Source: Curvularia clavata
Lineage: Eukaryota
Assembly: GCA_023920165.1 (NCBI GenBank)
Contig: CP089278.1
Span: 1,302,001 to 1,366,000, forward strand
DNA length: 64,000 nucleotides
Reading direction: 5' to 3'
Below are positions 2,021-49,225 of the stretch, in pieces. Every line of letters begins with the position of its first letter. Position 1 is the first letter of the stretch. Both the position numbers and the translations under genes were made by a program. The notes beneath the pieces are model-generated. The model was not told the origin of the DNA. It searched no databases and saw nothing but the letters and a program-made list of their open reading frames with translations.

Positions 2021-4453
2021 ATACCCGTCTTTTGCTCTTGATTGTTGATCGAGAGTGTGTTGCTGTTGGTTTTTTGTTATGTTGAACAAAGTTCTTGCAT
2101 CATGTGTGAAGCATTTCAGCGATGGAAATATGTATGTCAATTCGAAACTATAGGATGAGGATACTACAGAGCAAGAGGAGTCAGGACGAAAGAGAGATTT
2201 AGGTATAAGGTTAAATTGGCACGAATTTGTATGTGTATGTATGGACAACTAGAGATAAAGGCTGCGAGGCTGCTTCATCATGCACTTGGTTTGGCCCGGT
2301 GTGGAATGTAAAGACTAGATTGTTGAGTTGGTTTCAGATTCTCTTCTCCTTTTTCTTCGTCGGTGAGAATGAGCGTGTGATGACGATAAGACTCGAATAT
2401 GTAAGGGCGATATCTCAAGCTATCATTTCGTTCACATAGAGTTTTGAACATTCCATGGTTCCCAGCCGAGGGACATACGTAGTGCTAGCTCCCAGGAGAG
2501 AAAAAAAGGCAGGGACCGAATAAGAAAAAAAGAAAAGAAGATACATCCGTGACTAAAAAAACACATACGTATACATTTGATGCCCAGTCTCTTCTAGAAA
2601 CAACCAGTCGCACGAGTACCAGAACTACTAAAGGAGTGTGAACACGAGGATTTCACGAGTCATGAGCGCTGAAATCGGGTTGGAAACGTTTATATCTCCG
2701 AACAAGAATGCAGCCGGTGAGCGCGAGCGAATGGTGGAAGTGGAGTTGGGATACTTTAACGACGCTAAACTTATTTCATGGCGCTAGTAAAAACGGGTGC
2801 CACAAGAGAATACGAAGGGGGGCGGCATGATGGAAGCCAAGGGTTAGCATAGCGAGTTAGTAGCAAGAGAGACACGGAACAGAGGACACGGTAGGGCGTG
2901 CAGGATCGGAAAGGAAGGGAAGGAGTAACAAGGCTGAAAAGCCGCCAAGGCCACAAGATGTTGTGCGGCTGAAGAAGGATGACAAGAATATGCGCCACAT
3001 GTTTTTGTTTGGTTTTCGCCTTGGATGTGGTGAGATGGACAAAATAGACAACAAGCGGTCAAGGACTGTAAGGGAAAGGATGGGTAGATGTGGCCTTTGA
3101 GGAAAAAATCGGCTGTTCCTAGGCAAGGGCAGATCAATTGCCCATCCATGAGATTGAGGGCGGGGATGGCCATCTACGAAGCCCGCCCACCCCGCCCGGC
3201 ACGCCTTCCTGCTCTAGCTAATCTCACATAAACGTGCAGCTCCAGTCAAGGTCGAGCAGCGCTAAAGCGAGAGCAGGAGCAAGATATGCTGGCCAACCCT
3301 TTCAACTGCCTCAGTGTGTTTGCTTGCTGGTGCTGAGCAGGAATATGGGCTACAGCTGCACGTTGAGAGTTGCAGCTGTTGATTCGCTCTGTAGCGGGGT
3401 AAGCCGACTAACGAGTGGCGTGCGTTTCTGGACGTTGTTTGGTTTTTCTGTTGACTTTTTTTTCTCTTGCCTGTGCAGCATGCAGGGCAAAGCAACGAGA
3501 ACAATATGCACGCACAAAGAACCAAACGGCTGGCTGTTTCCCTCACCGTCCTGTCTTTTGACACATGGAGCCAGGCGGGTGGAGAGCTGGAGCGCGCGGG
3601 TGCAGAGCTGCGCCGTTAGCGGGACAACCCACTCGGTTTGTGTGTGTTTTTTTTGTTTTGTTTTTACATTGCTGTGGTGTCTTTGCATATATGTAATATG
3701 TACGTATGCATGCGGTGCCAGCTTGCAACTCGACAAGAAGAAAAAGGATCACTTGTTGATCGACGGGCTGATGAGGCGTCGTGTTTACTTAGCACCGCAT
3801 TGGGAGCTGCAAAACCCGGAACTGCTGACGTAGCCGGTACAAGTCGTGTATAGGGGAGGGGTATTGGCGAACGCCCGCCCTGACTACAGAATTAGCAATA
3901 CCTCCCGTAAGCTCCTGGGAGCATTGGTCATGGACACGAGGGATGGATAGTATCGAATAGAGCATTCTTGGTAGCTCGAGGTGCAAATCATCGAGGCGTG
4001 GAGCTAGTGTTTCTATTTTGGAGGTGCTGCGCCTCGCGGTCCCTGAGCAGCCATTGGGATATTGGGCAATGGATCCAGGAACAGCGACGGGCGAGTGTCC
4101 CACTATTGGCCGCAGCGAGGCTCGCGGAATCCGAGAGACAGGGCCCATGACAGTTGCCAGTGTGCAGGGCTCGTGGCGTATTTTCAGGCGTAGCATCATA
4201 TCGCGGCGTTTGGGGTGGGTGCAGTGCATGGGCGAGACTAGCAAGGTCGAGTGGAGAAGGGCGCCGCTGGGGCATGCTCAGTGCTTGGCTTGAGACGTAT
4301 AAGTCAAACACACCACCGCTCTTTCTCTCCTCTCATACCCGATTCCTCTGCTCTCCTCTCCTCCTCCCCTGCTGTGCTGCCAATTCCCCATCCCCGACAT
4401 CTGCACAATCGCTTTCCGTTCCATAATCGACTCCCTTCTTTCGTTTCTTCGCC

Positions 4454-6825
<2,372 letters not shown>

Positions 6826-17057: not shown

Positions 17058-18075
17058 CTACATCTTGGCATCGACCTTCCGTCTCGCAGCTGTGTTCCTA
17101 CTAGCGTCTAGCACCAGCCCCACGTGATGGCTCAACGCGACCAGCTCGCCTTGGGCATCGTGCACAAACACCTCGAGATCCATCCTCCCATTGGCAACCT
17201 TCTTCATCTCGACCCGGACCCGCAGCCATTTGGCGCCGCCTGGCGGAAGCGACTTTTTGATGTCAAGATTGAGCAGCAAAGTCGGGTACCAGTACGGGCC
17301 AGTCCCTTCGTCCTTGAGCGTCTCGATGAGCTGTGGAAACATGTCTGCGACGAAGCCAATGGACGAGTCGGTAAAGTTGCTGCCGTCAGAGAAGCAGAGC
17401 CACTCGTCGGCGACGTTCCGTGCAGGCTTGCCTGCCCGTGGAAAGTGGAAACTCAGTTTGGTCGTTGCCTTGCGGAATTTGGAAAATGGCATTTCACCAA
17501 ATGGTTTCCAGTTTGGATCTTGGTCGTTTGCCAGCTTGGAGAGGTCGACAGGAGCTATGGGAGGCGAGAAGGTGTACTCGGTGTCGTAACTGACGCCGGA
17601 TTCCGTGTCCATGTTGGAGTTTGTCACGTATGCGACGATTTCTTGTCGACCGTCTTGCTGCATGCTAACATGCACGATGGAGGTCTGGCGGCCGATCTTG
17701 ACATCGTCGACGGTGAAGGTTGCTGGGCCAGCCTGGGTTCGTCGGAGAAATTCCACGTGGAGGGCGATTGTGTGAGGTTGGTTGTGCGCGGCCAGGGTGG
17801 TGCTGAAATGTGCTTTGACTACCTCTAGGAGACTGACATGGTTTGGTCAGCGGCTATGTACGCATGTTGTGCATGCTGCATGCTGGCAAGGTGCCCCTCA
17901 CCATCCGGTAACATATCCGCCGTTTGGAACTGCGTACGTCAGTCAGAACGGCCCGTTGCGATGGATATCTGGGGCGTAACATACCGCTTCCGATGCACCA
18001 ATCATCGTGTAATGTGCAGGAGTAGGTGTTGGAGGAGAGCTTCTCCACCGCAGTGGCTTCTTGCCAACCCGGCAT
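17058..18075 (-). CDS. Hot-dog fold acyl-CoA thioesterase (4HBT_3/TesB-like) with PTS1-like C-terminus AKM
   Basis: DWCIGSVPNGGYV, WYPTLLLNLDIKK, NGRMDLEV; introns 17930-17984 and 17833-17901; ends RRKVDAKM. Confidence 0.88.
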
Positions 18076-18452: not shown

Positions 18453-20361
18453 ATGCCTTCCGACAGCCAGTACCCCAGCTTGCCTATTCCCGATGTTGAT
18501 CTTGTGAGTTTCCCGTCTCGGAAATAAGCTCGTATGTCAGCTTGATGTGCTGACCGGCGTGTGTGACGTTTCTAGTGGGCATTTCTATTTGAGAGGAAAG
18601 AAAAGCCATTTGCAGATGACAAAGGTATTCACATGCGACTGGCGTCGTGTTTCTATTGGGTGCCGAGCTGACGGTTATCACAAGTAATCTACTTTGACCC
18701 ATACACCAAGCGGTCCTACACATATGCACAGGTCCGAGAAACAGCCATTACTTTTGGCAAGGGGTTGAAGGCACAATGGGATTGGCAGAAGGGTGACGTC
18801 CTTGCACTGTACACACCAAATTGCATTGACACCCCAGCGATAACATGGGGCTGTCACTGGGCTGGCGGTGTGTTGTCGCCTGCTAACCCAAACTACACGG
18901 TTGAGGAGCTTGCTTTCCAGCTCAAAGACTCTGGTGCAAAGGCTCTGGTAACACAGTTGCCGTTTATCAGAAATGCGCAAGAAGCGGCGAAGAAGGTTGG
19001 CATGCCCGTGGATAGGGTGATTGTAATGGGAGATCAGAAAGATCCTTCATACAAAGTGAAGCATTTTACCAGCATCATCAACACGGCTGGATCCTCCAAG
19101 TGGCGGAGAACCAAGGCGAGCAACCCAGCTGAGGATTTGGCATTCCTGGTGTACAGCTCCGGTACCACAGGTCATCCAAAGGGCGTTATGCTTACCCACC
19201 GAAACATTGTTGCCAACACCTTGATGATCAAGGCCGGCGAGGCCGGAAATCTTAAGCCGACAGGAGGTCCTACAGGCGAAGGAGATAAACTGCTCGCATT
19301 TTTGCCCTTCTTCCACATTTACGGTACGCAAAAGGCGCATGATCAATCTGGAAAGCATATGCTGACATTCACCAGGTCTCACGTGTTTGATCCACCAAAG
19401 CTTGTTCTCTGGCCTCCAACTTGTTGTCATGCCAAAGTTTGATCTCGAAGACTTTTGCAAGTTCATCCAAGAACTCAAAATCACATTCGCATATGTCGTA
19501 CCGCCAATTGTCCTTCTTCTGAGCAAGAGCCCTGTGGTGTCAAAATACGATCTCAGCTCTATTCGTATGATGAACTCTGGTGCTGCGCCGCTTACACGAG
19601 AGCTTGTGGACGCAGTATATAGCAGACTCAAGATTCCTGTAAAGCAAGGATATGGTCTTTCGGAAACGAGTCCTACTACGCATACCCAGCCATGGGAAGA
19701 CTGGAACAAGACGATTGGTTCGGTCGGTAAGCTGCTGCCTTATCAGACAGCTAAATACATGTCTGCAGACGAGAAGGAAATGCCCGTTGGTGAGGTCGGT
19801 GAGCTCTGGATCAAGGGACCAAATGTTTTCAAGGGATACTTGAACAACCCAGAGGGAACCGCACATGCAAAAACAGCCGACGGGTACTTCAAAACTGGAG
19901 ATGTTGGATACCAAGACAAGGATGGCAACTTTTATATCACGGATCGTGTTAAGGAACTCATCAAGTACAAGGGTTTCCAGGTGCCACCGGCGGAGCTTGA
20001 GGGTATTCTGGTCTCTCACCCGAAGATTAAGTATGTTCGCCTCGCAGCTTTGATGTTGGATTTTGCTAACGTGTTTCTCTCTCGTAGCGATGTGGCAGTA
20101 ATTGGAGTCTACAGTAAAGACGACGCAACAGAGCTTCCCAGGGCATACATTGTGCCAAAGGACGGTCTTGGCAAGACCGATGCAGATGCAAAGGAGATTG
20201 TGGATTGGTTGAGCACAAAGGTTGCACACCACAAGCGGCTGAGGGGCGGTGTGAGGTGGGTCGATGAGATACCCAAGTCCGTGAGCGGTAAGATCTTGAG
20301 AAGGGTGTTGAAGGTAAAGGCGCAGGAGGAGGAGGATGCCAAGGCGAAGGCGAAGCTGTAG
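18453..20361 (+). CDS. Peroxisomal 4-coumarate/phenylacetyl-CoA ligase-like AMP-binding enzyme
   Basis: YSSGTTGHPKG, QGYGLSE, TGD, DRVKELIKYKGFQV, PKSVSGKILR; four introns (starting about 18504, 18625, 19324, 20031); C-terminal AKL. Confidence 0.93.
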
Positions 20362-29703: not shown

Positions 29704-31628
29704 CTATAGCTTAGCTTTGCTGCTGTTCTTGAGACGTGCATGATACCGATCCCTCATCTCGCGCCTCAGCATCTTGCCCGATGGTGTCCTAGGTATCTAG
29801 ACATTTCATTAGCAATCAGACTCCAACCCTCTCGAAATTGACTTACTGAATCGACAACCTCAATGCCACCAGTCAGCCACTTATGCCGACTCAGCCGTTC
29901 CTGGACCCATTCATGAAGCTTTCTTGCTACTTGTTCTTCACCCTGTTTCTTTCCTTCAGCTGTGAGCACGATCCAAGCACGCACAAACAGTGAGCCGTCG
30001 CCACGATTGTTATCAACACCCGCTACACAGGCATCTTGCACCAAGCCTTCTGGGTGATCAAGCAGCGTGTCTTCGACTTCTGTCGCTGCAACCTGAAGAC
30101 CCTTTACTTTAATCATTTCCTTGAGACGGTCCAGATAATGCAGTCGGTCCTGTTCGTCGCGCATGACGAGGTCTCCCGTACGCAGCCACCCGGGCTCAGC
30201 GAACATCTCAGCCGTGGCTTTTGCATCTTTGAAATACCCCGGTGTCACGACGGGGCCGCGCGCCCAGAGCTCGCCTTTCTCACCTTTGGCTACGTCTTTC
30301 AGTGTGTCTGGGTCCACAACCCGTCCTGACATCCCGGGGAGCAGGTACCCGATCATACCAGGAAGTGCAGGCTCCAAGCCAAAGATTCCGGGCGCTGCTG
30401 GACTTGCAATGCTGGCTGCTTCGCTGAGTCCGTAGCCGCTGGGAATCGGCATTGCGGCGCCTTGCGGGAGCTTCTTGGCTAGTTGGTATGCGACGTCTGG
30501 GGGTAGGTAGGCGGCGCCGCTTCCGGCACCAATGACTGAGCTTAGGTCGTATTTCTCCGTCAAAGGGCTTTGGGCGAGCTGACGTACTAGCGGTGGGACG
30601 AGTGGGAGGTGGGTAATCTTGTACTTTTGGATACTTTTGAGCGCGAGCTCGAGATCCCATTTTGGGAGCATGATGCCAGTGTTCTTGAGAAGGTTGACTC
30701 GGAGCATCCAGACAATCATTCCGTATGAATGATACATTGGGATCACGCCTAAGGTGGTGATGGGTTTCAAGGGTTCGTCGCCTGCGAAGCGGGAGGCTTG
30801 GACTGATGTAATAAGCGTTTGCATGCCTGAATGATAGCCATTGCTGTGCGTTATCATCATGGCTTTGGGGAGACCCGATGTCCCTGAGGACTGAAAGAGG
30901 TATGCCATTCGTTTTCCACCCCGGAGTTTGCGTGGCCGTTCAGGAAGTCTTGAGCCTATTCTTACAAGAGACTCGATAGTGGGATATCCAGATACGCTAT
31001 CAAGCTTGGTGTTGTCACTCAGTACAATGATCTTTTTCGGATCTAGCTTCAGTTTCAAAGGAAGATTATCGCCTTCTCCAGATCCCAACTCGATTGCTGC
31101 TTTCAGCACTGGAAGTAACGTTTCGTGGCACATGATACTCGTGATCTGCATTTTTCTGAGTACCCACCACAGCTCGTATGGTGTGCTTGCTGGACTGATA
31201 CCTCCAAATACCAATTCTGATCGGAAACATGCGTGCGCTACCATTGGATAGTGGATATGATTTCGTGAGAACAACGCTAGAATTTCACCATCTTGCGTGT
31301 CATCAACAGGGCTTTTGCCCAGGCCCAGCGGGTTTGGCCCATCGTAACGCAAAACACGTGCTAATGCGCATGTTCGATGGTAGAAGCTGTGTAATGTGAC
31401 AACTTCCTCCGTTACTGCATTGATGATGAGAGGGTAGTCTTCAGGTAGCGGGTTGTTGGGTGGGAAGCAAAGCTCATGGATGTTGAGATCGTCAGGTGTC
31501 GGTGGAAAGGGTCCATACGGTGAAGTGAAGATCGCTTCATTGTGGGGTTGGTACTTGAATGCATGTGGATCTGGAGAGTCGGGGCCTAGGAACCTAGACC
31601 AATGCGGGTTGAAGATGTTGTGTGTCAT
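29704..31628 (-). CDS. Second AMP-binding acyl/aryl-CoA ligase (4CL-like), peroxisomal
   Basis: QSSGTSGLPK, SGYGLSE, LRTGD, DRLKEMIKVKGLQV; intron 29797-29846 gives IPRTPSGKMLRR...SSKAKL-stop. Confidence 0.9.
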
Positions 31629-32556
31629 TGAAGTAAGAGAACACAAGAGACTTGGCTGTCACTTAATTCCTGAGACTTAATAGTTAAGGGTAGTCGCAGG
31701 GCGCGTAGGTACATCTTGCTGGATTTGCGGGTAATAAAGCAGTTCCCTACTAGACTTCCGAGGTGTAATATGCACCCCGCGTTTCTCCACACAGATTTCA
31801 AGGTGGTGTAGCTAAAGAAGACAAGCGAAACCTGCTTGCGCGTATCCTTTTCCAGCTTAAAAAAGTATCGCAACATCAATGAAGCCTAATTAATCTACGT
31901 TACTGGCCTTGCAGATACAATTCAACCAGAAACAGAGACGACACGAATTCATGTGGAGTATCGGCGAAGAGTCGGTCCTATTCGTAAAGAGAACCCGGAC
32001 TTCTTCAACATTCACTATATGCTCGAACACGTGAGTGCAGATACAACTTGGGGGCCATCATAAACTGCATTGGAGCAGAGCGCACCTGGTATTTTGCTGA
32101 CCATTGTGCGATTTCGGATCTCTTCAAATCGATAGTGCTGCCTGGTTTTACGGTGGGTGGCCTGAAACTCCCGGACACCCTCGATTGTCAGCGTTGGTTT
32201 CAGCTGATCAAGCCACCTCAGATTCGACTTCATTTGTGGGGCTGCCGGTCTGTTGACAGATGTACCTCAGTTGTTATGAGAAAAGGGGATGCGCAAACAA
32301 TGAGCTGGCATACGTTTCAGCCCTCGAAGCGTACACTTAAACTCTGGTGGCGGTGAACCTCGCATGCTGTTCTCCTGGGATTGTCGCGATTTAGTCTCAG
32401 CCACAGCCTTCTCTAGATTTTGGCCCCAACTACGCCGTAATCCACATTTCAGCCTTTATAAGCTTTGCGCAGCCTCTTCTCACAACTCTGCCGTTTTCTG
32501 GGCAGTTTTTCTTAACCCATTCTTCATATTATTCGTGGGATGTGTTGACAGTAGTC

Positions 32557-36383: not shown

Positions 36384-36878
36384 GATTCGGGTTCTGATGC
36401 GGTTAAGTTGTCAACTTGGTAGTACAACGTTCAAAGCAACAACGGTGACGATGCACGATTCGGAATGAAAGAAGTTACAAGAGCGCGTTTTGATAATAAT
36501 TGGTCAATTAGAACCATCCAGACTCTAGATTATTATGATAGAAAACAAAAGGCCATGGAGACTCTTATCTCTAACCGGCATTTGTAGGGTAAATCCCCTC
36601 CATCGCATGTATCCCCACAAGGCGGGGAAGAAGGATCGGAAGGATCGCCACGATGCGGGGATATTTGCATAAGACATGCCGAGGGCAAAGCAGCGTTACT
36701 CCGCACCAATCTCATATGAATAAGGCTTTTAGGACAATGGGCATGTAAAGATGACCTTTTCCCCACAAGACAATATGGTGTTGGAGAACAACAAAGCTGA
36801 ATTATTAGTCGAAACAAGTATAGCTAGCTGGTCTGGCTGAACTGGCTAAAGTAACATTCGCGCATAGCCTTGATGTCA

Positions 36879-38225
36879 TTTACTTTGTCATAAACGCCCA
36901 GAAGCCCTTTGCGAGCAAAACGCTTGGCAAGTCGACGACGCGGTAGAAGACCTCTGCTACCACAGTAGTCAGGGGTACGCATATCAAGAAACATAACAGT
37001 CCATTCACTGCGTTGCTCATCCCTGACGCAGCCATGTGCTGATAAGCTTTGATTCCGACAGTGTATATGATGATGGATTGGACAAGGAAGAAACCTATGA
37101 CATGTAAGTAACTATTTGCTGTTGGCTATAGCTGCCGGTAGACTTACTGAAGCTTCTCTTGCCAAGTGCAACGAAGAACCCGCTGGATAGAACCCTACGG
37201 GCCACGTCGAACGTTTCTATCAAGAGCGTAGAGCCAAGAATAATGAGATAGTTGTCGATGCGAGCCATGGGTTGGTTTAAGTCCACGTTCTCGTTGAGCA
37301 AGCCGCCCGTATAAATTCCAGTGTGGCTGTAGAGTTCCTCATGGCGGAGGTCCGTCCTCCATGAGATGAACAGGAAGTGCAGCAAGACACCGGTAAAGAC
37401 CATGACTGCGTACAGCGGCCAAAACGGGATTGTGAGATTTCCCATCTGGAATCCTCGGCGCGAGCGAGCTGAGAATTCCATATTGAGCACAGCATCGGCG
37501 ATGAGAAGGCCAGTGATACTGTACCAGGCCCAGCTCTGCACCCAGAATGCGGCGACGATGAAGGCAAGCATTGCCTTTACGCGCCAGGATAGACGGGTAT
37601 TGGGGACAATGATCATGGTCATGTAGACAGTGTAGCTTTGCTGAAAAAGTACGGAGACAATCCAGAGGGTACCAGATGGGAAGGCACTGTTGGCGGCTTG
37701 GCTGCCATAGTCTTTGTTGAGCCAGAAAATCTCAAACATGGAGTTGAAATAGACCAGGAAGTTACGTAGGGGCATGGGTACACCAGTTGAGATGTTCCCA
37801 GTAGACTCCATAAAATCAGAAATGTAGTCGGTGGATGCCGCGTTGAAGGCAGCTGCCGCAACCGAGTACGCAACGAAGGTCGGGATCCAGAGCCTAATGC
37901 CACGACGAAAGATGCTGGATGCGCCCACCTCCCGTGTCTTGCTGGCGAGGTACGGTAGGCATATCGTTCGTGCGGACAGGAAGATGATCCATCCGTAGAT
38001 CAAAGAAGGATTGCAAAAGAGCACCGAAAACGACTTCCGGAGCCCAACTTGATACGAAGGGCCATCGACATTCTTCGAATCTGGGACGGCCGCCGGGAGA
38101 AATGTCTGGAAGAAAACGAAGAGAAAAGATTGAATAACAAAAAGACCTCGGAGCCCAATAAGGTAGTCCTGGTCCATGGCAATGCCTGTGGCATAAGAGC
38201 TTGGCGATGATGTGAACATGGCCAT
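36879..38225 (-). CDS. Acyltransferase-3 (AT3/OafA/OpgC-like) multi-pass membrane protein
   Basis: DYLIGLRG, FRRGIRL (RxxR), GTLWIVS, LGKRSFSFFLVQ, FYRVVDLPS; one intron about 37095-37147; alternative starts at 38219 or 38177. Confidence 0.8.
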
Positions 38226-39914
38226 AGGAGAGGATAGAAGTCCGGACTTCGTTGTGGGTGTCTCTGAGGCTCTGCTTTCACGAGTAGAGAACCTAATATC
38301 AGAAAAGAATACTTCACACAAAAGGGAGGGGAAATGATCAGCCCCCTTCTCAGCTGTCACAAACACTCGACCAAGGCCAGCATCAAACACGTCGTCCCGA
38401 AAAACACGAAACTTGCACGTCCCTAAACGCTCAATGGGAGACCCGAGATCATCGCCTTGGCCCGCTCAGAAAAAGAAAAGCTTATGCACTTCGGGAGGGT
38501 CCTCCTTTCTTGGCGTGGTGCTTCACACTGCAGGTACCACATTACCTCACGACTCCGGCATGAAAACGTTGTTTGGCTACAGCATAAGCTCCTGAAGAGC
38601 AATCCTTGGCGGGGGGTACGCATACCGATAGTTTACTTCTGCAACACTACGAAACTGTTGGTAAGCGTTGTGTCTAGTGGATGAGTAGCGGCCCTAACCA
38701 GTAAGGGATGAGATAAGGCATCGTGATCTCGCCGATATATCGTGTCGATACACCTGTCAAGTACGCCACGTCCGTTCCGCGGCGGCTCGATATGCATAAG
38801 GTTGTATGTCCTGCCGTGCGCCCGCTCCTTGATCCTTACTCTTTCTCTAGAGCGAGTCGTGGCGTCGGTGGAGAACACGGAGGATATTAGACAAGCATAG
38901 CAGTGTTGACGAAGATCTTCCGTACGTGGCACAAAGACTTGACTAGGGTGATTCAGCTGTCACCGGTCGCCCTGACATATACTAGTGTATACATTTGCGC
39001 CTATTCGACAAATGTGTATCAGTGGAACCCAGCAAGGAATGGGACATGCCGAGCATTACTGTCTCGAGACAAACCCGTAAACACCCTGACTCGCGACAGG
39101 AACAAGGCTGAACAAAGCGCCCAGGGGTTCCCACATGGATTTGTTTGTTTTGGCATCTTGGAAGCGTCCGACTCGACAAGACACGATGCACGAACTTAAA
39201 TTAAGCTTGTGGTCTATGCTGCCAGCCGCCAATGCCATTCGCCCATTCCCGAGGTTCATCCCACACGTTGCGCTACCATGCACAGTGTGGGAACTAAGCG
39301 CATGCTCGGCTGTGTCCGGCTGTGTAGATCGGCCGCGTGTCCACCATGTAATCTCCCGAGAATCTTTAACAGCCTCAACAGTGGCTGGTGATGTAACGAA
39401 GCGGTCAACCATAGTGGGTCTCTGATAGCTTGCCGTTGTGAATTTTGCGCTCAAGAGGATCATCACCATGTAAGGATATAGCCCATCTTCAAGTTTAGTG
39501 ATGATCTGCAAATGTTTCTCTGCGTCTTCACAGCGCCATGCACATCACTATAACCATGCAAGGTTATGAGAAAGCACAACATGCCAAGAGGCATCGGCTG
39601 AAAATTTGAATTTCCAACTGTCGCTGCATCCCGATGTCCGCAACCCAATCGACTGGTTCGGACGACTTATCGTTCATCTCCGTGTCTTGCAATCAGAAAG
39701 TTACTGGGATAGTTACCAAAATAGTTGAATCGGTTTTGAAAAGTATATTATTGATACTATTCGAGTGTGTTCGCAGCTCGCGATCACCCAATCGGCTGCT
39801 AGAGCCGCGTACCTAACTATTTATACCGAGAAAAGAAAAGAAAAAGGCGTTTGATATCCGCCCCCAGATAAGGATATACACATCATGATTACAGGAACAT
39901 CCCAGTTCGTCAAG

Positions 39915-41495
39915 CTACTTCCTGGCTGTTGGATTCCAGGAGCTGTACTTGACAAGCTGGCGTGCATGGCCGTACAGGCCAATGGTAGCGTTAAGGACAA
40001 GGTAAAATGGATACAAGACTGAGAAGAGAATGATCATCCTTCTTGTCACAAACTCGGATTTCACTTGATTGGTGATCCAGAGAGTTGCGATCAAGCAAAT
40101 AATACTGAAACGAGGTTAGCAAGATCCAGGGGTTAGGCAGTGCATATGCATTACGAACCTGATAATGAAAAGCCACTGTGAGACAGGGTACTGGAAATAC
40201 ACCAACTTCCATAGCTCCTCTCCATTGGTTGGGAACTTGACGATAACAAATGATGCGACCAGGCATGTGTATTGTGTGACCAGGTAGTAGGACGACTCGC
40301 GGATCAGCAACAGCGATAGCATTCCGAACCGAGCTGTGAAGCTGCGCTTGGCATGTTCCTCGTGCAGCGGATCCTTGACGCCATTCCAAACCATTTTCAT
40401 GTGACGCATACTGGCCTGAGCCCATCCTTGAGCCCATCGGAGGCGCTGCTTCCAAAAGGCTGCAAAGGTTGTTGGTGCCAACTCATACGAAGTAACGTTG
40501 AGGTCATGGACAGTCCTAGCGCCCTTTGAGAATGCGCGCAACGCCGAATCGATGTCCTCCGTCAACATGCTTTCGTCCATCTTGAGGTCGCGGAGAAGAG
40601 AGGTGCGCCAATATCCATTTGATCCGCAGAAGAGCCCGAAGCCCCACATGGTGGACCGACCAGGATGGGAAACTGCGTAGATCTTATCAAATTCGACGGA
40701 GATCATATTGGTCATGAAAGAATCTTCGGAGTTGAAGACGATGCACCTGCCCTGGACAATGTCGACATTCTCTGCCATGAATCGCTCAGCTGCCCACCTT
40801 GGCGCATTGGGGTGGGGGTAGTGATCGCAATCGTAGATGGCAATAAGGTCCGATCCGGTGTCCAGCGTGAAGAAGTAATTCAGATTGTCCGCCTTCGATG
40901 TGGACCCTGGCACCTTGATGACTCTGGCGTGGGGGAAGTGATTTCGAAGATCAGCGAGTTCCGTCTCCAGCGGCTCGATTGGCTTCGGTGTGTTGTAAAG
41001 GATATTAATTCTGATTCGGTCCGTGGGATAGGCGATCTCTCTGAGCGCGTAATGGGCGCGATCCATGATAATGTCCTGCTCGTTTGGCAAATAGGCGACG
41101 ATGAGGAGGTCCAAGATGGGCAGCTGGCTGTCTGGTGTGGGAAAATGCCACTTCTTCTCTTGCGCTTGAGTCACCACTTCCCTTGCCTCGCGGCAGGGTG
41201 TGATGCTGAAAAAAGCCTCCAACACTGTCGTACCGGCGATGTAAAAGTTGGTGCACATGTATATGAACCAGAAAACGGCAATGAGGCCTTCGCTGCAATA
41301 CATGTACATGCATACCGAAAAGACGTAGTATGAAAGGACCAGGCCGAAAGGCGTCCATTCGGAAATCCATGAAGATGACCGTCCGACGAGTTGGGAGGGA
41401 GCCCAACTGCTCTTGGGAGAAGACTTCTCGTCAACACAAGGCGCAGGAGAAGAAACTTCTCCTACATCAATGACACAGTCCTTGTTGTCAGACAT
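39915..41495 (-). CDS. Processive family-2 glycosyltransferase (membrane glycan synthase)
   Basis: AYLPNE, TSKADNLN, DCD (DxD), TED, QRLRW (QxxRW); N- and C-terminal TM helices; one intron about 40105-40158. Confidence 0.92.
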
Positions 41496-42787
41496 CTTGT
41501 AAAGAGTGAAGGATGTGACAGTAACGATTGGAGGAAGGGCCAAAGCAAACGAAGGTGACTACTGTAGCAAAACTCAAAGGAGTGAAGAGATGGCACCGAA
41601 CATATATCGGAATTCCAAAGCCCTGGGTTACTGACTACGCGAGGAAAAGGGTGTGGCGGACAGCCAACGTCTGCCCAGAAAAAACATGATGACCTTGCGT
41701 ACTGGTTCATTTCGACTGTGCAATGACGCTCAGGAGAGCTGGCCTTGGCCCCATCTCACCATTATGCCCATGATCGGCACTGTTATCAACAATGCCCGAC
41801 CCTAATCATGGGAGAAAGGCGGGTTAACCCGGTGGTGCTCAGAGGTCCATGCTCTTCTGGAGTATTCCCACATGTACAGGCATGTAGAGTTTTCTCGATT
41901 TGGGCCCTGAACTAGCGTTCTGCGTACGCAGCAGCCAATGGCATACTTTTTCTTCGTCATGATTCTGCCCATATTTTCGATATGCTTGTTGCATGCAGTA
42001 TGGGGCGGGTCCAAGAGTCAATGCTGTGAGGCTAGGCAAAGTAGCACTAGTAGTTTGTGGGCCGAATTATGTCCTAGTATACCGTATATTGGTGTGACCG
42101 AGTGTGCAGAAGCTGAGATATCCGCCGTGGCTCTAGGTAATCCGGACGACAACGCATCTTCTCCTGTAGCAGGGCATGTGCAGTGGAGCAGTGGAGCATG
42201 TGTCACGGACCTCATATCCCGGAGCAAGCTGGAACAAGCCAAAAATCATGCATGTGGCGAAGATCACTTGAGGAATTGGGGGTCACTAAGTTAACCATCA
42301 GGATCATCACAGCCAGCGTGGGATGAAGAAGGAGGAAGGCCGTGTTAGCGTAGGCGCACGGCCCGCTGCGGTGCACGTCTCCTGGCGCTCTGTTCAGCCC
42401 CCTCCGCCTCTTGCGACAGCGACACAGACCCATGCAACAACATTTGCCATTGTCCCAATCGTCATGACCCTGCCAAGGAAAAGCCTGCAGAGCTTTTTGG
42501 ATCTTGTTGCACAGTGCACGGCTGAAGCGCCGGCGATGACCTCAAGGGGCGGGCCAAGTCACATAGGCAGCGGATAGGGGAGCCATCGCGCCCTACTGCC
42601 ATCTGCTTATGAGGCTACAAGCATGACTGCGGCTCCTCCCCATCCGAAAAGCATTGTTGCACGTTTTTCCTAAGCTCCTTAGATTAGCCGTACCTGCCGA
42701 GTGGCATGCGGTAGACAAATACCACCTTTTCAACTTGAACAAACGGTTTCGCTCTGCCTTCCCTCGTTTGGTCACTCGCTTATCCTC

Positions 42788-45700
42788 ATGATTTACTCGT
42801 CTCTACTGGGGCTTGCCTTGGTGCATATCCTGCCTGCCCTTGCAGACGTCTCCCGTGGGACAGACAACTGTACTTGCGGATTCTATGACGGTCAAACCAA
42901 GCAACTCTATACCGACTCCATCATTGTCTACTTCAATGAGACAACAGGACTACCCTTCGACTTTATTGCCGAAGATTTCGAGCAACACTATGCCAAAGAT
43001 TGGGTACGGACTACACACACGTCACATACATGGGACTCGCCAACTAATTTTGTTTAGAATGCAGTTTACCGTGAGGGTGCGTCTCCGGACAACCTGCGGC
43101 ACGACAATGGCCAGCCTCTTCAGCTTGTAGTACAGCCAACAACAAAAGACCACCTTGTAAACGGTGCCAGTCTTCGGACCAAGAGGCGTGACATCCAGCA
43201 TGGCTCCTTTCGTACCCTGATCAAGCCTGCAAGCTGGGATGCTGGAGGCACAGCGGCTTCCATGATGTGGAAATACAACGAAACAGAAGTGACAGAGCTC
43301 AGTGTCATGAATGGTCACCGCCCAAACCAGCCTTGGGTTGGTACCTTTGTGAACAACGAGTTTACAACTCGTAACCTGGGAATGAACTTCAGTCAGCTCC
43401 TCAATGGCACGGCCGCCAATAGAAACTACACCACCCTAGGCGGTGGACTTCGCAACGGCAGTGTCAACCCATGGGACTTCACAGAATACCGCATCGACTG
43501 GACTGCAGACGACATCACTTTCTATATTGGTGGCAATCTGACCCGCCGGGTTCAGCACAAGAAAAACAAGGGCATGCCGTCAGTCCCTTCAGCAATGTTC
43601 TTCAAGCACTGGTCGACCGGTAACCGTTATTCGATGCAGGGACCTCCTCGAGGAAGAGAGGCGGTTGCTGAAATTGGATGGGTCCGCATGTTCTTCAATT
43701 CGTCGACGATGAGCGAAGACTCTCGTGAGGACTTTGTTGCACGCTGTCCCCTGACCGATGCCTGCTCTACTGACGATTTTGAGCTGCGTGGCTCTACACC
43801 GCACGGCGACGAGGCTACAAAACAGTGGAAGCAGGACGGGCATCGAGACATCAAACGCATGCCGGCACTCTGGATATCTGTCTCGTGTCTTGCCATCTCG
43901 ACTTTCCTCCTTATTCACACGCTCATTCGACGTCTGGGGCCTAAGATTGGTAAACGCGCTCCTGAACCAAGCCCAGTATCACCACCACCACCAACAGCAC
44001 AAGTTGGTCAGGGCCCCTATGGTGAAAGCACATTCACAGTAGAATCTGTGGAGGTCTTTTCACGTCCTCAGACGGGTCAGAAATCGCCATCTGTAAAGCG
44101 CCACTCGGTAGACGACCTGACGATCGAGAGGCTTGACAAAAAGCCCAGTTCATCAACACTTGGAGGTTCCACGCCTAAAGTTGGCCTGTCTCGTGGCAAT
44201 TCCGTCATGTTCGATAGCCGCATGACAACGCCTTATGCAAGCAACTTCAACCCCAGTCGCGAAGACGTTACCAGCCCGACACTCAATGTTCCAGGCTCGT
44301 CTGCTCATCACGATTCGATGCTTACCTTAGCCGACCCACGAGCTCAGCTCTCACCACGCCCAGACAAGATCACCATGGAGACCGTCACTGAGTCCGCTCT
44401 GCCAGCTCCCCGCATGCGCCCTCAACCCCCACCGGCGCGAACCCGTATCGATTATCTTGCGGGACTGACGGCGCTATGCTCCCTCGTTGTTACCATTATG
44501 CATTTCGGTCTTACCTTTGTTCCCGCCATGGTTCAACCGGGTGTGGATGCGCACAATGATTCTGAACCCTGGGCGCAAAGGATCATCGGACCCTTCCTGC
44601 TCAACCAGATGTGGCTCGGTGTGTTCTTCACTACCTCCGTCCGTTTCCTGACTGCAGGGTACCTGCGCAAGGGCAAGATGGATGAAATCGCCAAGGCAGC
44701 CGTACGTCGAACACCGCGTCTCATGATTCCCGTCGCTGCAGTCGCGCTGCTCGAGTACTTCTTCATTGATGTTGGTGCCACCAAGTTCCTTCAGTACATC
44801 CCCAGTCTCACTTGGTCAACTTGGCCGTACGTGACTCGATATCAGAATTTCGGCCAGTACATCTCTGAGGTGCTGGAGCTCATGTTCCTCATCCCCAACG
44901 CTGCACCGCAAATTACTCTTCATTACTGCACTGGTGTGCTCTGGACCATCGCCGTACAGCTTCAGGGTTCATGGCTTGTACTCCTCGGTGCCCTTGTTGT
45001 CTATGAGATCAAGACGCCATGGAAGCGCATGTGCTACTACACGTTCTGTCTCGTAAACCACTGGTACGCTCATTCCTGGGGCACGTATCTCTGGTTCGGT
45101 CTGCTGCTTACCGATCTCGATGTGACATATAACTGGAAGAAGTATCTCTCCAACCGACCAGTTGCTTACTACGCTACATTGATCTTCTTCTGGGGTTGTG
45201 TGGCAGCCGGTTTCGCAGCCAACATCGTCCCCAACTGGGTCCACACAACCTTCAACTTTAGCACTTCAGAGCGAAACATCCACCCAGATCCCGTGACTGG
45301 CGAACCAATTCTCAACACTGATGATGCCGGCTACCCAATCTACTACACTCCACGTCTTAACGGTCTCCTATTTGCCGGCGGCATGCAAGCCGTTGTCGAG
45401 CTCTCCGCAGCCGTCCAGTGGGTTCTCTCGACGCCGCCCTTCCTCATCCTCTTCCCCCATGTCTTCACCATCTACCTCATCCACGGCCTCGTCTTCTGGA
45501 CTTATGGCTCCTGGCTCATGGTATTCCTCGCCGACCGAGGCTTCACCTACGGCATCAACGTCGCCATTGTCGGCGTAACTTCGTACGGCGTCCTCTTCGC
45601 CTGCCTCCCCATCGTCACACCCGTAATCGAGGCCCTCGGCAAAGACATGACCGCGCTGGTCTGGATGACCGCAACCAACAAATCACCTCCGCGCCGCCGC

Positions 45701-46033
45701 ACCCTGTACCCGTACCCCGACGACCTCTTCACGAGCCGCATGCCAAATGAGAAAGAAGATGAGAAAAACTCAAACGGTAGCACTACATCCGACGACGTCG
45801 AAAAGGGTCTCGCCCAGCGCCAAAGCGGCAGCAGCGACGACGACGACTCGCTGCGCCCTCCCAGCAACGCCAGCTCCAAAGGAAAAGACAAGGGCAAGGG
45901 CAAGGCTCCCGTTGAAATCGGCGTGTATGGCATGCATGCTTTCGCCTCTGCATCCTCCTTCAACGACGACACCGACTCGCAGGCGAACAGGAGTCGAGCT
46001 GCGAGTCCTATGGTAAGCCGTTTCAGCGGCTAG
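42788..46033 (+). CDS. Signal peptide, GH16-like domain, TM/linker and acyltransferase-3 domain fusion
   Basis: MIYSSLLGLALVHILPALA signal; CTCGFY, IQHGSFRT, FTEYRIDW...ITFYIGG, KHWSTGN (fungal GH16-like); RIDYLAGL, RRTPRL, GVLWTIAVQLQGS, IYLIHG (AT3); intron 43004-43057. Confidence 0.88.
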
Positions 46034-47689: not shown

Positions 47690-49225
47690 TTACTCGACAA
47701 TCTCGAGCTCGGCCGTCCGGTGCTTGGCAAAAGTATCTTTGTGCTCGTCCCATATGCGCATCAGCTCGTCCACGTACTGTTGATGGACTTGGTTGATGTA
47801 GTCGTTATCCGGATGTTGGTCCTGAATCACTCTGATTGGACGTCCGACCACAATGTTGATGGGCCTGCGGTAGGGCATCATACCGACATCGTAGTTGAAA
47901 ACACCACGCGCGTGGAAGATCGGGACGGTGAAGCCTAGGAACTTCTTGACCAGCATCTGGAATTGATGGATATAAGGATGTGACTCGGTATCGACTTGGT
48001 CGTAGATGTCATTTTCGCCAAACGCGAGAACAGGAACAAGGTCGGCACCGGTACGGATGGCCATCTTCACAAAGCCTTTGCGGCGCCGAAGAACAAGCCT
48101 GATGACGCCGGGACGGGCATCAAGAGATTCGCTGGCGCCACCAACGACAATGGTGATGGCGCGACCCATTCCCTCGCCATTCTGGCCACCTTTAGACAGG
48201 ATGTTCTCGCAAGACTCGCGTGATACAGAAGCCATGCCGAGACGGAGGGCATACTCGCGGTAGATTGGGTAACGAAAGTTTGAATCGAGCGTCAACAGGG
48301 CGTTTGTGATGCCTGGAAACAGCTGGGAGAAGCCGAGAGCTTCCGTGGCGAAGGCAGCAAAGGCGCCGTGTGAGATGATGCCATGCGGATGGTAACCGAA
48401 AATGTACTTCCTCGTTGGCTCCAACTCCTGCGAGCGGTGCAGACGAGCGGGGAAATATGATGCAAAGAGCGACCATACGGGTAGTCGTCGAAACCATTCG
48501 CTCCGGAGAGAAAGCTCTCCTGATGTTCCAGCATTGGAGAAGAGAACGTAGACGGTATATGGGAGAAGGATGGGCCAGAGCAGTGGTATACTGCAGAGGA
48601 AGAAGAAGATGGCGAGACTTCCGACAATGCTGAGCGTATGCATGAGCACGGCGAGGGTCTGGAGACGGCGTTGTAGGGGCACGTTCATGGGAGCAAATCG
48701 TATCCTATAGCTTTTGTCAGTACATTATATTGGCAATTAAGCATACATGTCGACTCACTTGCTCTTGGACCATCCTGCGCCGGCCTGCCGTCCCGTCGTG
48801 AGCTCTGAATTTCTACGCTTGCGGTCGACTCTTCTGTCTTTCTCGGGTAGCTCAACATCCTGTGACGGTTTCACACTGGTTAGCGCATCGCCATTGCCAT
48901 TTATGTGACTCTCAAACATGTCTTTGGGCGGGCTGTTGTCTTGCGTGTGGTTGGAGGATCTGCGAGAGCTGCGCGACGACACACGGCGATGGCCTCTTGC
49001 AGTCGGGCTTTTAGGAGACCCGTCCTGGCCCACGCCTTCATGCGACGTCTTTTCCTCGTCCGAGGTGGGATGTATGCCATTGGTCTTTACCTCGTCGGTG
49101 GTGCCATTAGCATGTGATTGTGGGCCCGACTCGAGAGCCTCTTCGGCAGCGTCCGCATACGTCTTGGGGGGCAGATTGTGCTCGGCGCGCTCCTCAGGCA
49201 CCGAGGGCTCGGGGTTCAACGACAT
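47690..49225 (-). CDS. DGA1: Diacylglycerol O-acyltransferase, DGAT2 family
   Basis: YFP, GYHPHG, VVGGASE, RKGFVKMA, VPVLAFGEND, VVGRPI; intron 48705-48758. Confidence 0.96.

Follow-up and report, generated by a model that had tools for sequence, protein, structure and literature searches.

A linked trio of a GT2 synthase, a GH16::AT3 fusion and an AT3-fold membrane protein as a candidate system for a modified fungal wall or matrix glycan

In fungi, the wall and the matrix serve as targets for drugs and form the surface that is read by the immune systems of plants and animals. To our knowledge, few fungal polysaccharide synthases are known beyond the chitin synthases, Fks, Ags, Tft1 and the enigmatic Cps1, and we know of no AT3-type acyltransferase tied to a wall glycan of a filamentous ascomycete, only of the Cas1 type, in Cryptococcus. 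AT3 proteins, to which IcaC belongs, carry, as described in the OafA literature, a histidine in the first transmembrane (TM) helix, another histidine in the last helix, an R-X10-H arginine and an RxxR motif after the third TM helix. The proteins published as Cps1, CPS-1, CpsA, ZtGT2 and MoGT2 are fungal GT2 proteins other than chitin synthases, which have DxD and QxxRW motifs, are absent from yeasts and have no known product according to their descriptions (PMC5653360, PMC9500679). Here we describe three adjacent genes in a stretch of 64,000 nucleotides from Curvularia clavata (contig CP089278.1 of assembly GCA_023920165.1, positions 1,302,001 to 1,366,000 of the forward strand), called the window in what follows. 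The trio lies within 36879-46033 of the window and comprises a gene for an AT3-fold membrane protein (gene A, minus strand), a gene for a GT2 that shares with the Cps1 group the features just listed (minus strand), and a gene for a GH16::AT3 fusion protein (plus strand). On balance, we think it probable that the locus is a three-part synthase-dependent system for a modified, probably O-acylated, glycan of the wall or matrix.

According to gene models built from the sequence, gene A (430 residues) starts with an ATG at 38225 and consists of exon 1 (37148..38225) and exon 2 (36880..37094), both on the minus strand, with the stop codon TAA at 36880-36882. The GT2 (508 residues), on the same strand, has its exon 1 at 40159..41495, encoding the motifs DCD (40824-40832), TED (40554-40562) and QRLRW (40434-40448) as well as FCGS, and its exon 2 at 39915..40104, which encodes the last TM region and ends in TAG at 39915-39917. 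The fusion (1063 residues) is read from the plus strand, with the signal peptide and the start of the GH16 part in exon 1 (42788..43003) and the remainder of the protein in exon 2 (43058..46033). Its product is 100% identical to the public Curvularia clavata protein yc1106_07066, also of 1063 residues. Between the start codons of the divergent GT2 and fusion genes lie 1292 bp (41496-42787), which may have a promoter role.

As transcription data we used assembled RNA contigs from four public runs (X1, X3, X5 and X22); runs with small word shares (X9-X21) were left out. The fusion intron (43004-43057) is spliced in contigs of X1, X3 and X22, the GT2 intron (40105-40158) in contigs of X5 and X22, and the intron of gene A (37095-37147) in a contig of X22 only. 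Because the contigs carry exactly the three predicted introns, the trio is transcribed and spliced, and all three genes are so in run X22. An earlier note on this DNA had proposed three adjacent genes at this place, which the gene models and the matching introns bear out, with a 1.3-kb intergenic region shared by the GT2 and the fusion, as is indeed the case. The public Curvularia clavata annotation contains instead a single protein of 1408 residues (USP79791.1; 34609-41495) in which the GT2, gene A and the MFS transporter next to them are run together. Since each gene has its own stop codon and the orthologues are separate genes, this chimeric model is an artefact.

The linkage of the trio is kept far beyond Curvularia. 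Consecutive or near-consecutive accessions or locus tags were found in at least 12 named species. All three genes are consecutive in Bipolaris sorokiniana (EMD62079/80/81), B. maydis (KAJ5022776/77/78) and Coniothyrium glycines (ACN47E_002427/28/29), and the accessions are near-consecutive in B. oryzae, B. victoriae and B. zeicola. Consecutive pairs occur in Macrophomina phaseolina (MPH_08204/05), Neofusicoccum parvum (GME26121/22), N. ribis (SLS56_012156/57), Diplodia seriata (SLS55_007606/07), Neocucurbitaria cava (N0V83_004904/05) and Sarea resinae (M1819_002080/81), while the tags of the fusion and gene A are two steps apart in Plenodomus lindquistii and Neocucurbitaria sp. VM-36. For at least 36 of the 120 listed GT2 matches, the longest contig has the same size as that of a listed fusion match, and 12 of these contigs are under 100 kb (counted by hand). 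A scan of metagenome contigs gave 80 loci, which fall into 56 groups at 97% nucleotide identity or more. Where a group reaches 6 kb or more upstream and 4 kb or more downstream, as 15 groups do, all three genes are present without exception. Of the 28 groups whose flanks add up to 6 kb or more, 27 have one partner gene or more, the exception being a locus (L078) whose GT2 is only 35% identical. The earlier note had named unlinked orthologues in other genomes as a finding that would speak against it, and this clearly does not hold: from Pleosporales to Botryosphaeriales, Leotiomycetes and Sarea the three genes stay together, and the linkage persists from 87% down to 52% GT2 identity. Among the 20 groups with three genes, 14 have the order of the window, five have gene A between the fusion and the GT2, and one has the fusion downstream of the GT2. 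As for the genes that flank the trio in the window (MFS, DGAT2, CorA-like and the AMP-binding gene at 29769-31658), they are found again in none but the closest loci (L001-L008), save for one MFS match in L034.

The pairing of such a GT2 with an AT3 gene is also found in bacteria. A scan of one genome per prokaryote species gave 552 GT2 relatives, and the best 80 of these (L081-L160) come mostly from Streptomyces and further Actinomycetota, and otherwise from filamentous Cyanobacteria. In 59 of these 80 loci the strand of the GT2 also carries an AT3 relative, which is 1.5 kb away or less in 58 (51 downstream, 7 upstream; for example L083:5578-8629 and L108:4825-8432), and PF01757 was confirmed, at 76-108 bits, in five of the 14 loci examined. 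The bacterial GT2s match PgaC_IcaA best among the NCBIfam models, at 73-99 bits and so below the cut-off of 422, and those of Streptomyces carry an N-terminal response-regulator receiver domain. For the bacterial AT3 proteins no NCBIfam match was obtained, and the pairs seem to be uncharacterised. The likeness to ica loci, put forward in the earlier note as a matter of logic, therefore goes beyond analogy, since relatives of the same GT2 adjoin an AT3 gene in these 59 loci. Two loci (L085 and L113) were considered as GT2::AT3 fusions and rejected: because the GT2 and AT3 matches sit in different reading frames, we read them as adjacent genes. An AMP-binding gene as a core part of the bacterial pair was likewise rejected, being nearby in only 10 of the 80 loci. 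In L113, from a metagenome-assembled genome of Actinomycetota, a GH30 gene (3303-5003, minus strand) lies directly upstream of the GT2-AT3 pair; GH30 includes beta-1,6-glucanases.

By domain content, the GT2 of the window matches PF13632 (77.9 bits, 1.2e-21) and PF13641 (52.9 bits), both above a cut-off of 27. The motifs DCD (residues 222-224), TED (312-314) and QRLRW (350-354) are invariant in all 41 aligned orthologues, in agreement with the earlier note, which had described the DxD/TED/QxxRW set as complete, and FCGS aligns with FFCGS of Escherichia coli BcsA. BcsA chains are also the only sequence matches in the PDB (1.7e-9 to 2e-8). Among NCBIfam models CelA ranks first and PgaC_IcaA second, both scoring too low for the protein to be an equivalog of either BcsA (TIGR03030, 77 against a cut-off of 699 bits) or PgaC/IcaA (TIGR03937, 62.8 against 422 bits). 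The GT2 domain is flanked on both sides by conserved hydrophobic stretches, with two hydrophobic helices at the N-terminus and a C-terminal TM region conserved to the last residue. By fold class and catalytic motifs, the protein is predicted to be a processive synthase of the BcsA/PgaC type.

Two described fungal GT2 groups had to be set apart from it. A Tft1/CelA mixed-linkage glucan synthase was rejected on length, absence of a motif and taxa, by comparison with the description of AfTFT1, which places a switch motif at residues 548-558 and a lineage at 70-96% identity to AfTFT1 (10.64898/2026.09.17.752320). Fragments of this switch motif were found in none of the 594 proteins fetched, and the GT2 itself has only 508 residues; further, no Aspergillus or Sordariomycete is present among the 120 best GT2 matches, where Paecilomyces is the sole genus of Eurotiales. 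Nor is the GT2 probably Cps1/ZtGT2, as judged from published descriptions of MoGT2 and BcCps1 and from taxa. In MoGT2, as described, D156 and Q301 put 145 residues between DxD and QxxRW (PMC6731526). The spacing is 128 in the window GT2 and 127-131 wherever the 150 best representatives show both motifs, and none of them has 145. The published description of BcCps1 has a single TM helix at the N-terminus and disorder at the C-terminal end (PMC9500679), whereas the window GT2 has two N-terminal hydrophobic helices and is conserved to its C-terminus.

The earlier note had not recognised the gene as Cps1. This stands as far as spacing, topology and taxa go, but the GT2 may be the paralogue of Cps1 that has been named Cps2 (PMC9500679). 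It is quite possible, if short of probable, that the locus is best described as the Cps2 member of the Cps1/ZtGT2 family with AT3-fold genes as unnoticed neighbours, an explanation compatible with the mechanism proposed below. In the S1 Table of King et al. 2017, Cochliobolus heterostrophus and Botrytis cinerea each have two ZtGT2-like proteins at 1e-5 and one at 1e-60, and Aspergillus nidulans and Sclerotinia sclerotiorum have one; the weaker protein of the two may correspond to our GT2. Cps2 is described as less conserved and lost in 14 of 39 species (PMC9500679), and the lack of Aspergillus and Sordariomycetes among the 120 best matches to our GT2 also speaks for this reading. On the other side, the best 120 matches of any trio gene include no Zymoseptoria or other Mycosphaerellales, although Z. 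tritici is reported to have the paralogue; a member is found in Sclerotinia borealis (P0101), and yet S. sclerotiorum reportedly lacks Cps2; and the assignment draws on published descriptions and counts. In Botrytis, Cps2 is described as uncharacterised, its expression as never seen, and a homokaryotic deletion mutant as not isolated (PMC9500679), and a literature search on three Botrytis gene identifiers returned this paper only. Cluster look-ups returned no entry named Cps, Bcin or ZtGT2, and the cluster names in the Atlas were generic. Open-access papers and bioRxiv full text gave no paper on the trio, on a GH16::AT3 protein or on the function of Cps2.

The fusion protein consists of a signal peptide, a GH16 domain, a TM helix, a disordered linker of about 170 residues, an AT3 domain and a disordered tail. 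Within exon 2, the remainder of the GH16 beta-sandwich occupies 43058..43741 (to about residue 300), with its ExExxE motif at 43280-43297. It is followed by the single TM helix at 43859..43936 (residues 340-365, by structure model and hydropathy scan) and by the linker at 43937..44449 (residues 366-536), which is rich in P, S and T, poorly conserved and modelled with a predicted local distance difference test score (pLDDT) below 50. The AT3 domain extends over 44450..45676 (residues 537-945), with H554 encoded at 44501-44503, H881 at 45482-45484 and R623 and R626 in between, and the tail, rich in S, D and K and assigned by model, conservation and composition, covers 45677..46033 together with the stop codon. 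All four RNA runs lack three bases that the window has at 45835, an in-frame length polymorphism in this tail. Nine N-x-S/T sequons are present in residues 22-340 and none in the linker, which fits a topology with the GH16 part outside the cell and the linker on the cytosolic side.

The GH16 part matches PF00722 at 33.2 bits, above the cut-off of 22. Its structure model matches a Bacillus lichenase in Foldseek (3o5s, 1.2e-10, TM-score 0.73), and in VIA a lichenase (3i4i, Z 19.8, root-mean-square deviation 2.7 over 202 residues) and Crh5 (6ibu, Z 17.9). The fold gives no specificity, because laminarinases, carrageenases and the fungal Crh5 tie within about 2 Z units; the best PDB match by sequence is the Crh transglycosylase Crf1 (4.8e-5). 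Conservation was read from 108 orthologues of at least 900 residues, taken from 120 listed. In the motif E147-T-E149-V-T-E152, the first position is E in 83 and D in 23 of them, the second E in 92 and Q in 16, and the third E in 104. Conservation within the protein is highest in the AT3 domain: 107 of the 108 orthologues retain H554, 107 retain H881, and all have R623 and R626. PF01757 is precomputed for 48 of the 120 listed orthologues (counted by hand), and NCBIfam gave no match for the fusion. The GH16-like::AT3 fusion of the earlier note is confirmed, its GH16 part by PF00722 above its cut-off and by the jelly-roll model; the AT3 part is less clear by sequence, with the histidines and RxxR retained and PF01757 sub-threshold.

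Gene A encodes a multi-pass membrane protein. It has no Pfam match of its own and none in NCBIfam, but it is paralogous to the C-terminal domain of the fusion (BLASTP 2e-10, 23% identity over 354 residues), and PF01757 is found at E<=0.01 in 16 of 40 orthologues, and precomputed in 3 of the 120 listed (counted by hand). A model of the Bipolaris maydis orthologue (P0241; pLDDT 81, predicted template-modelling score 0.83) aligns in VIA-align with HGSNAT at Z 16.4 (8jkv) and 15.4 over 290-293 residues and with GWT1 (8xik) at Z 10.7, the next row being at 5.2. The same model gave no Foldseek match in the PDB at E<=0.001, and the family profile no PDB match at E<=10. An alignment of 61 of the 120 listed orthologues (those of 420-470 residues) shows that the family keeps the LRG arginine, at the R-X10-H position, and RRxxR, with R116, R117 and R120 invariant. 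Both AT3 histidines are missing, with V or F at the position in the first TM helix and Q at that in the last helix. Because both are replaced, gene A is, on sequence grounds, unlikely to be a canonical AT3 enzyme. Of the stand-alone AT3 of the earlier note, the fold is upheld, by the HGSNAT/GWT1 match and the paralogy, and the identity as an acyltransferase is put in doubt. Over gene A and the spacer between it and the GT2 (36800-39720), contigs with plus-strand GT..AG introns reveal a spliced antisense transcript, with joints at 37104-37166 in X1 and X3 and at 38657-38717 in X1 only. No sense-spliced contig of gene A was found in X1 or X3, the runs with this transcript.

Taken together, these parts suggest the following mechanism. 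The GT2 would act in the plasma membrane as a processive synthase, polymerising a beta-linked glycan from a UDP-sugar and exporting it through its own channel. In the fusion, a glycosylated GH16 domain would lie outside the cell and an AT3 domain of 10 helices would be embedded in the membrane; with its histidines and RxxR, the AT3 domain could take an acyl group from acyl-CoA in the cytosol and deliver it to the outer side. The nascent chain may be held as acceptor by the GH16 domain, which would thus take the role of the SGNH domain in bacterial AT3-SGNH enzymes and might also cut the chain or transglycosylate it into the wall. Gene A would most likely assist the synthase or the fusion as a partner protein, either with no catalytic activity or with catalysis of a different kind. 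The fungal system for a decorated glycan that the earlier note had postulated is thus supported in part: it gains from the linkage, from the bacterial pairing and from the X22 transcripts, and loses in that gene A may not be an acyltransferase.

Several points weigh against a synthase-dependent system of this kind. The product, the donor sugar, the acyl group, the localisation and the protein contacts are all matters that we infer. The AT3 domain of the fusion, aligned to PF01757 over positions 3-319 of the 326 in the profile, reaches 25.7 bits where the cut-off is 31; the residue at the position of the R-X10-H arginine is V in 77 and T in 29 of the 108 orthologues; and both AT3-like families have Q at the position of the conserved glutamate of canonical AT3 proteins. 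The GH16 motif is a variant, ExExxE, with Q in place of the central E in 16 of the 108 orthologues. The RNA contigs give no expression levels or ranking, and any claim of co-regulation is limited accordingly. On the bacterial side, 21 of the 80 loci show no AT3 gene, the 59 that do are not independent because many are from Streptomyces species, and common descent of the pair is not established, as the fungal and bacterial AT3 proteins are barely alike (best BLASTP 0.002).

A further difficulty comes from seven full-length relatives of the GT2 (P0555, P0577, P0515, P0528, P0531, P0448 and P0467), 29-37% identical, which form a sister group that has lost the UDP-binding, DxD, TED and QxxRW motifs; P0597 and P0513 are listed alongside them. 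Named members come from Teratosphaeria nubilosa and Neophaeotheca triangularis, and a pair of records that bear the name Quercus suber, which we take for contamination by fungi, also falls here. The motif-less GT2 of N. triangularis, and that of one Quercus suber record, is part of a long gene model that continues into a homologue of the GH16::AT3 protein (41% identity over 991 residues). In this Capnodiales-like lineage the link cannot rest on GT2 catalysis, since the motif-less GT2 is still beside GH16::AT3; such a neighbourhood fits a physical coupling of the proteins, or an independent role of the fusion.

The presence of an acylation step can also be disputed. The locus could make a plain beta-glucan, mixed-linkage or cellulose-like, which the GH16 domain cross-links or trims in the way of Crh, the AT3-fold parts being anchors, channels or regulators. 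The alignment of FCGS, TED and QRxRW to BcsA, the first rank of CelA among the NCBIfam models, the lichenases and laminarinases at the top of the GH16 fold matches, the PDB sequence match to Crf1 and the loss of both histidines in gene A would all agree with this, and Pyrenophora teres is described as having a mixed-linkage glucan without a known synthase (10.64898/2026.09.17.752320); "entry 66" of the preprint, from this species, may be an orthologue of the window GT2. We nevertheless consider a plain glucan unlikely. Within the fusion no other part is as well conserved as the AT3 domain, and the retention of H554, R623, R626 and H881 in 107-108 of the 108 orthologues argues, at the level of sequence, for catalysis; the GH16 fold matches, tied as they are, give no specificity to the glucan argument.

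That the product is a short oligosaccharide with acyl groups, a signal like the Nod factors made by a NodC-like GT2 and acyltransferases, and not a wall polymer, appears very improbable. NodX is an AT3 protein, several database records call the GT2 "N-acetylglucosaminyltransferase-like" and PgaC_IcaA is the second-best NCBIfam model, but no PDB chain of NodC, chitin synthase or hyaluronan synthase was matched at E<=0.01 by sequence or at 0.001 by profile, the C-terminal TM region, conserved up to its final residue, is in keeping with a synthase that translocates its product, and the extracellular GH16 domain fits a polymer better. Equally hard to credit is that the three genes are neighbours only through inherited local synteny or a common promoter, without a common pathway: gene order is often conserved among related fungi and the flanking genes are also common to the closest loci, but the trio stays linked in three gene orders, from 87% to 52% GT2 identity and while the flanks change, which argues for selection on the linkage itself, and the GT2-AT3 pairing recurs in Actinomycetota and Cyanobacteria.

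Starting again from a synthase-dependent system for an O-acylated glycan, one may put a more specific proposal, which we hold to be rather doubtful as a whole: the trio would be the missing machinery for a fungal O-acylated beta-glucan without a known synthase. Candidates are the mixed-linkage glucan of Pyrenophora, which apparently has no Tft1-type enzyme, or a partly O-acetylated beta-1,6-glucan of the pustulan/lasiodiplodan type made by a PgaC-like enzyme. In the same proposal, GH16::AT3 would be the first eukaryotic counterpart of the AT3-SGNH enzymes, and GT2-AT3 an ancient module that fungi share with Actinomycetota and Cyanobacteria and that is held together by physical contact. Such contact would explain why GH16::AT3 is kept beside a catalytically dead GT2.

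The window contains other genes of sugar and acyl metabolism, namely one for a protein like glucosamine-6-phosphate synthase (GATase and SIS domains), one for an acyl-CoA thioesterase, two for AMP-binding proteins and one for DGAT2 (5038-6822, 17061-17846, 18672-20358, 29769-31658 and 47693-48724).

What we rate as new is the occurrence in fungi and the domain architecture GH16-TM-linker-AT3, modification of a glycan by a synthase together with an AT3 protein being already a known principle. The trio offers a candidate pathway in many crop pathogens (Bipolaris, Alternaria, Pyrenophora, Macrophomina and Diplodia) and in lichen fungi, and the GT2-AT3 operon of Streptomyces and filamentous cyanobacteria is an object for parallel study.

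Finally, each part of the locus resembles a known system in some features and departs from it in others. Like Tft1/CelA, the GT2 is a fungal GT2 akin to BcsA/Csl, and AfTFT1 makes a beta-glucan of the wall. Gene A shares with HGSNAT and GWT1, as its Bipolaris orthologue is modelled, a transmembrane fold for acyl-CoA-dependent acyl transfer (HGSNAT uses acetyl-CoA); identity is about 10%, however, and gene A lacks the histidine of the first TM helix that its paralogue in the fusion conserves. The GH16 domain has the beta-jelly-roll of Crh/Crf proteins and of bacterial GH16 lichenases and laminarinases (Z 17.9-19.8), with acidic residues on the motif strand, but its motif is ExExxE and not ExDxE or ExDxxE, it is 14-17% identical to them, and it is tethered to an AT3 domain. 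With staphylococcal icaADBC and Escherichia coli pgaABCD, which serve PNAG synthesis, the locus has in common that the gene of a processive GT2, for which PgaC_IcaA is the second-best NCBIfam model, adjoins that of an AT3-fold membrane protein. Unlike them, the fungal locus adds a GH16 domain and a second AT3-fold gene and scores far below the 422 bits of the bacterial model, and no CE4 deacetylase was found among the 36 long open reading frames of the window that were scanned. The AT3-SGNH enzymes OafA, OafB and OatA, for their part, also join a membrane AT3 domain to an extracytoplasmic domain, and the fusion keeps their histidine in the first TM helix and their RxxR. It differs from them in that its outer domain is GH16 and not SGNH and stands N-terminal to AT3, after a signal peptide, and in having an extra TM helix, a disordered linker of 170 residues and V or T in place of the R-X10-H arginine.

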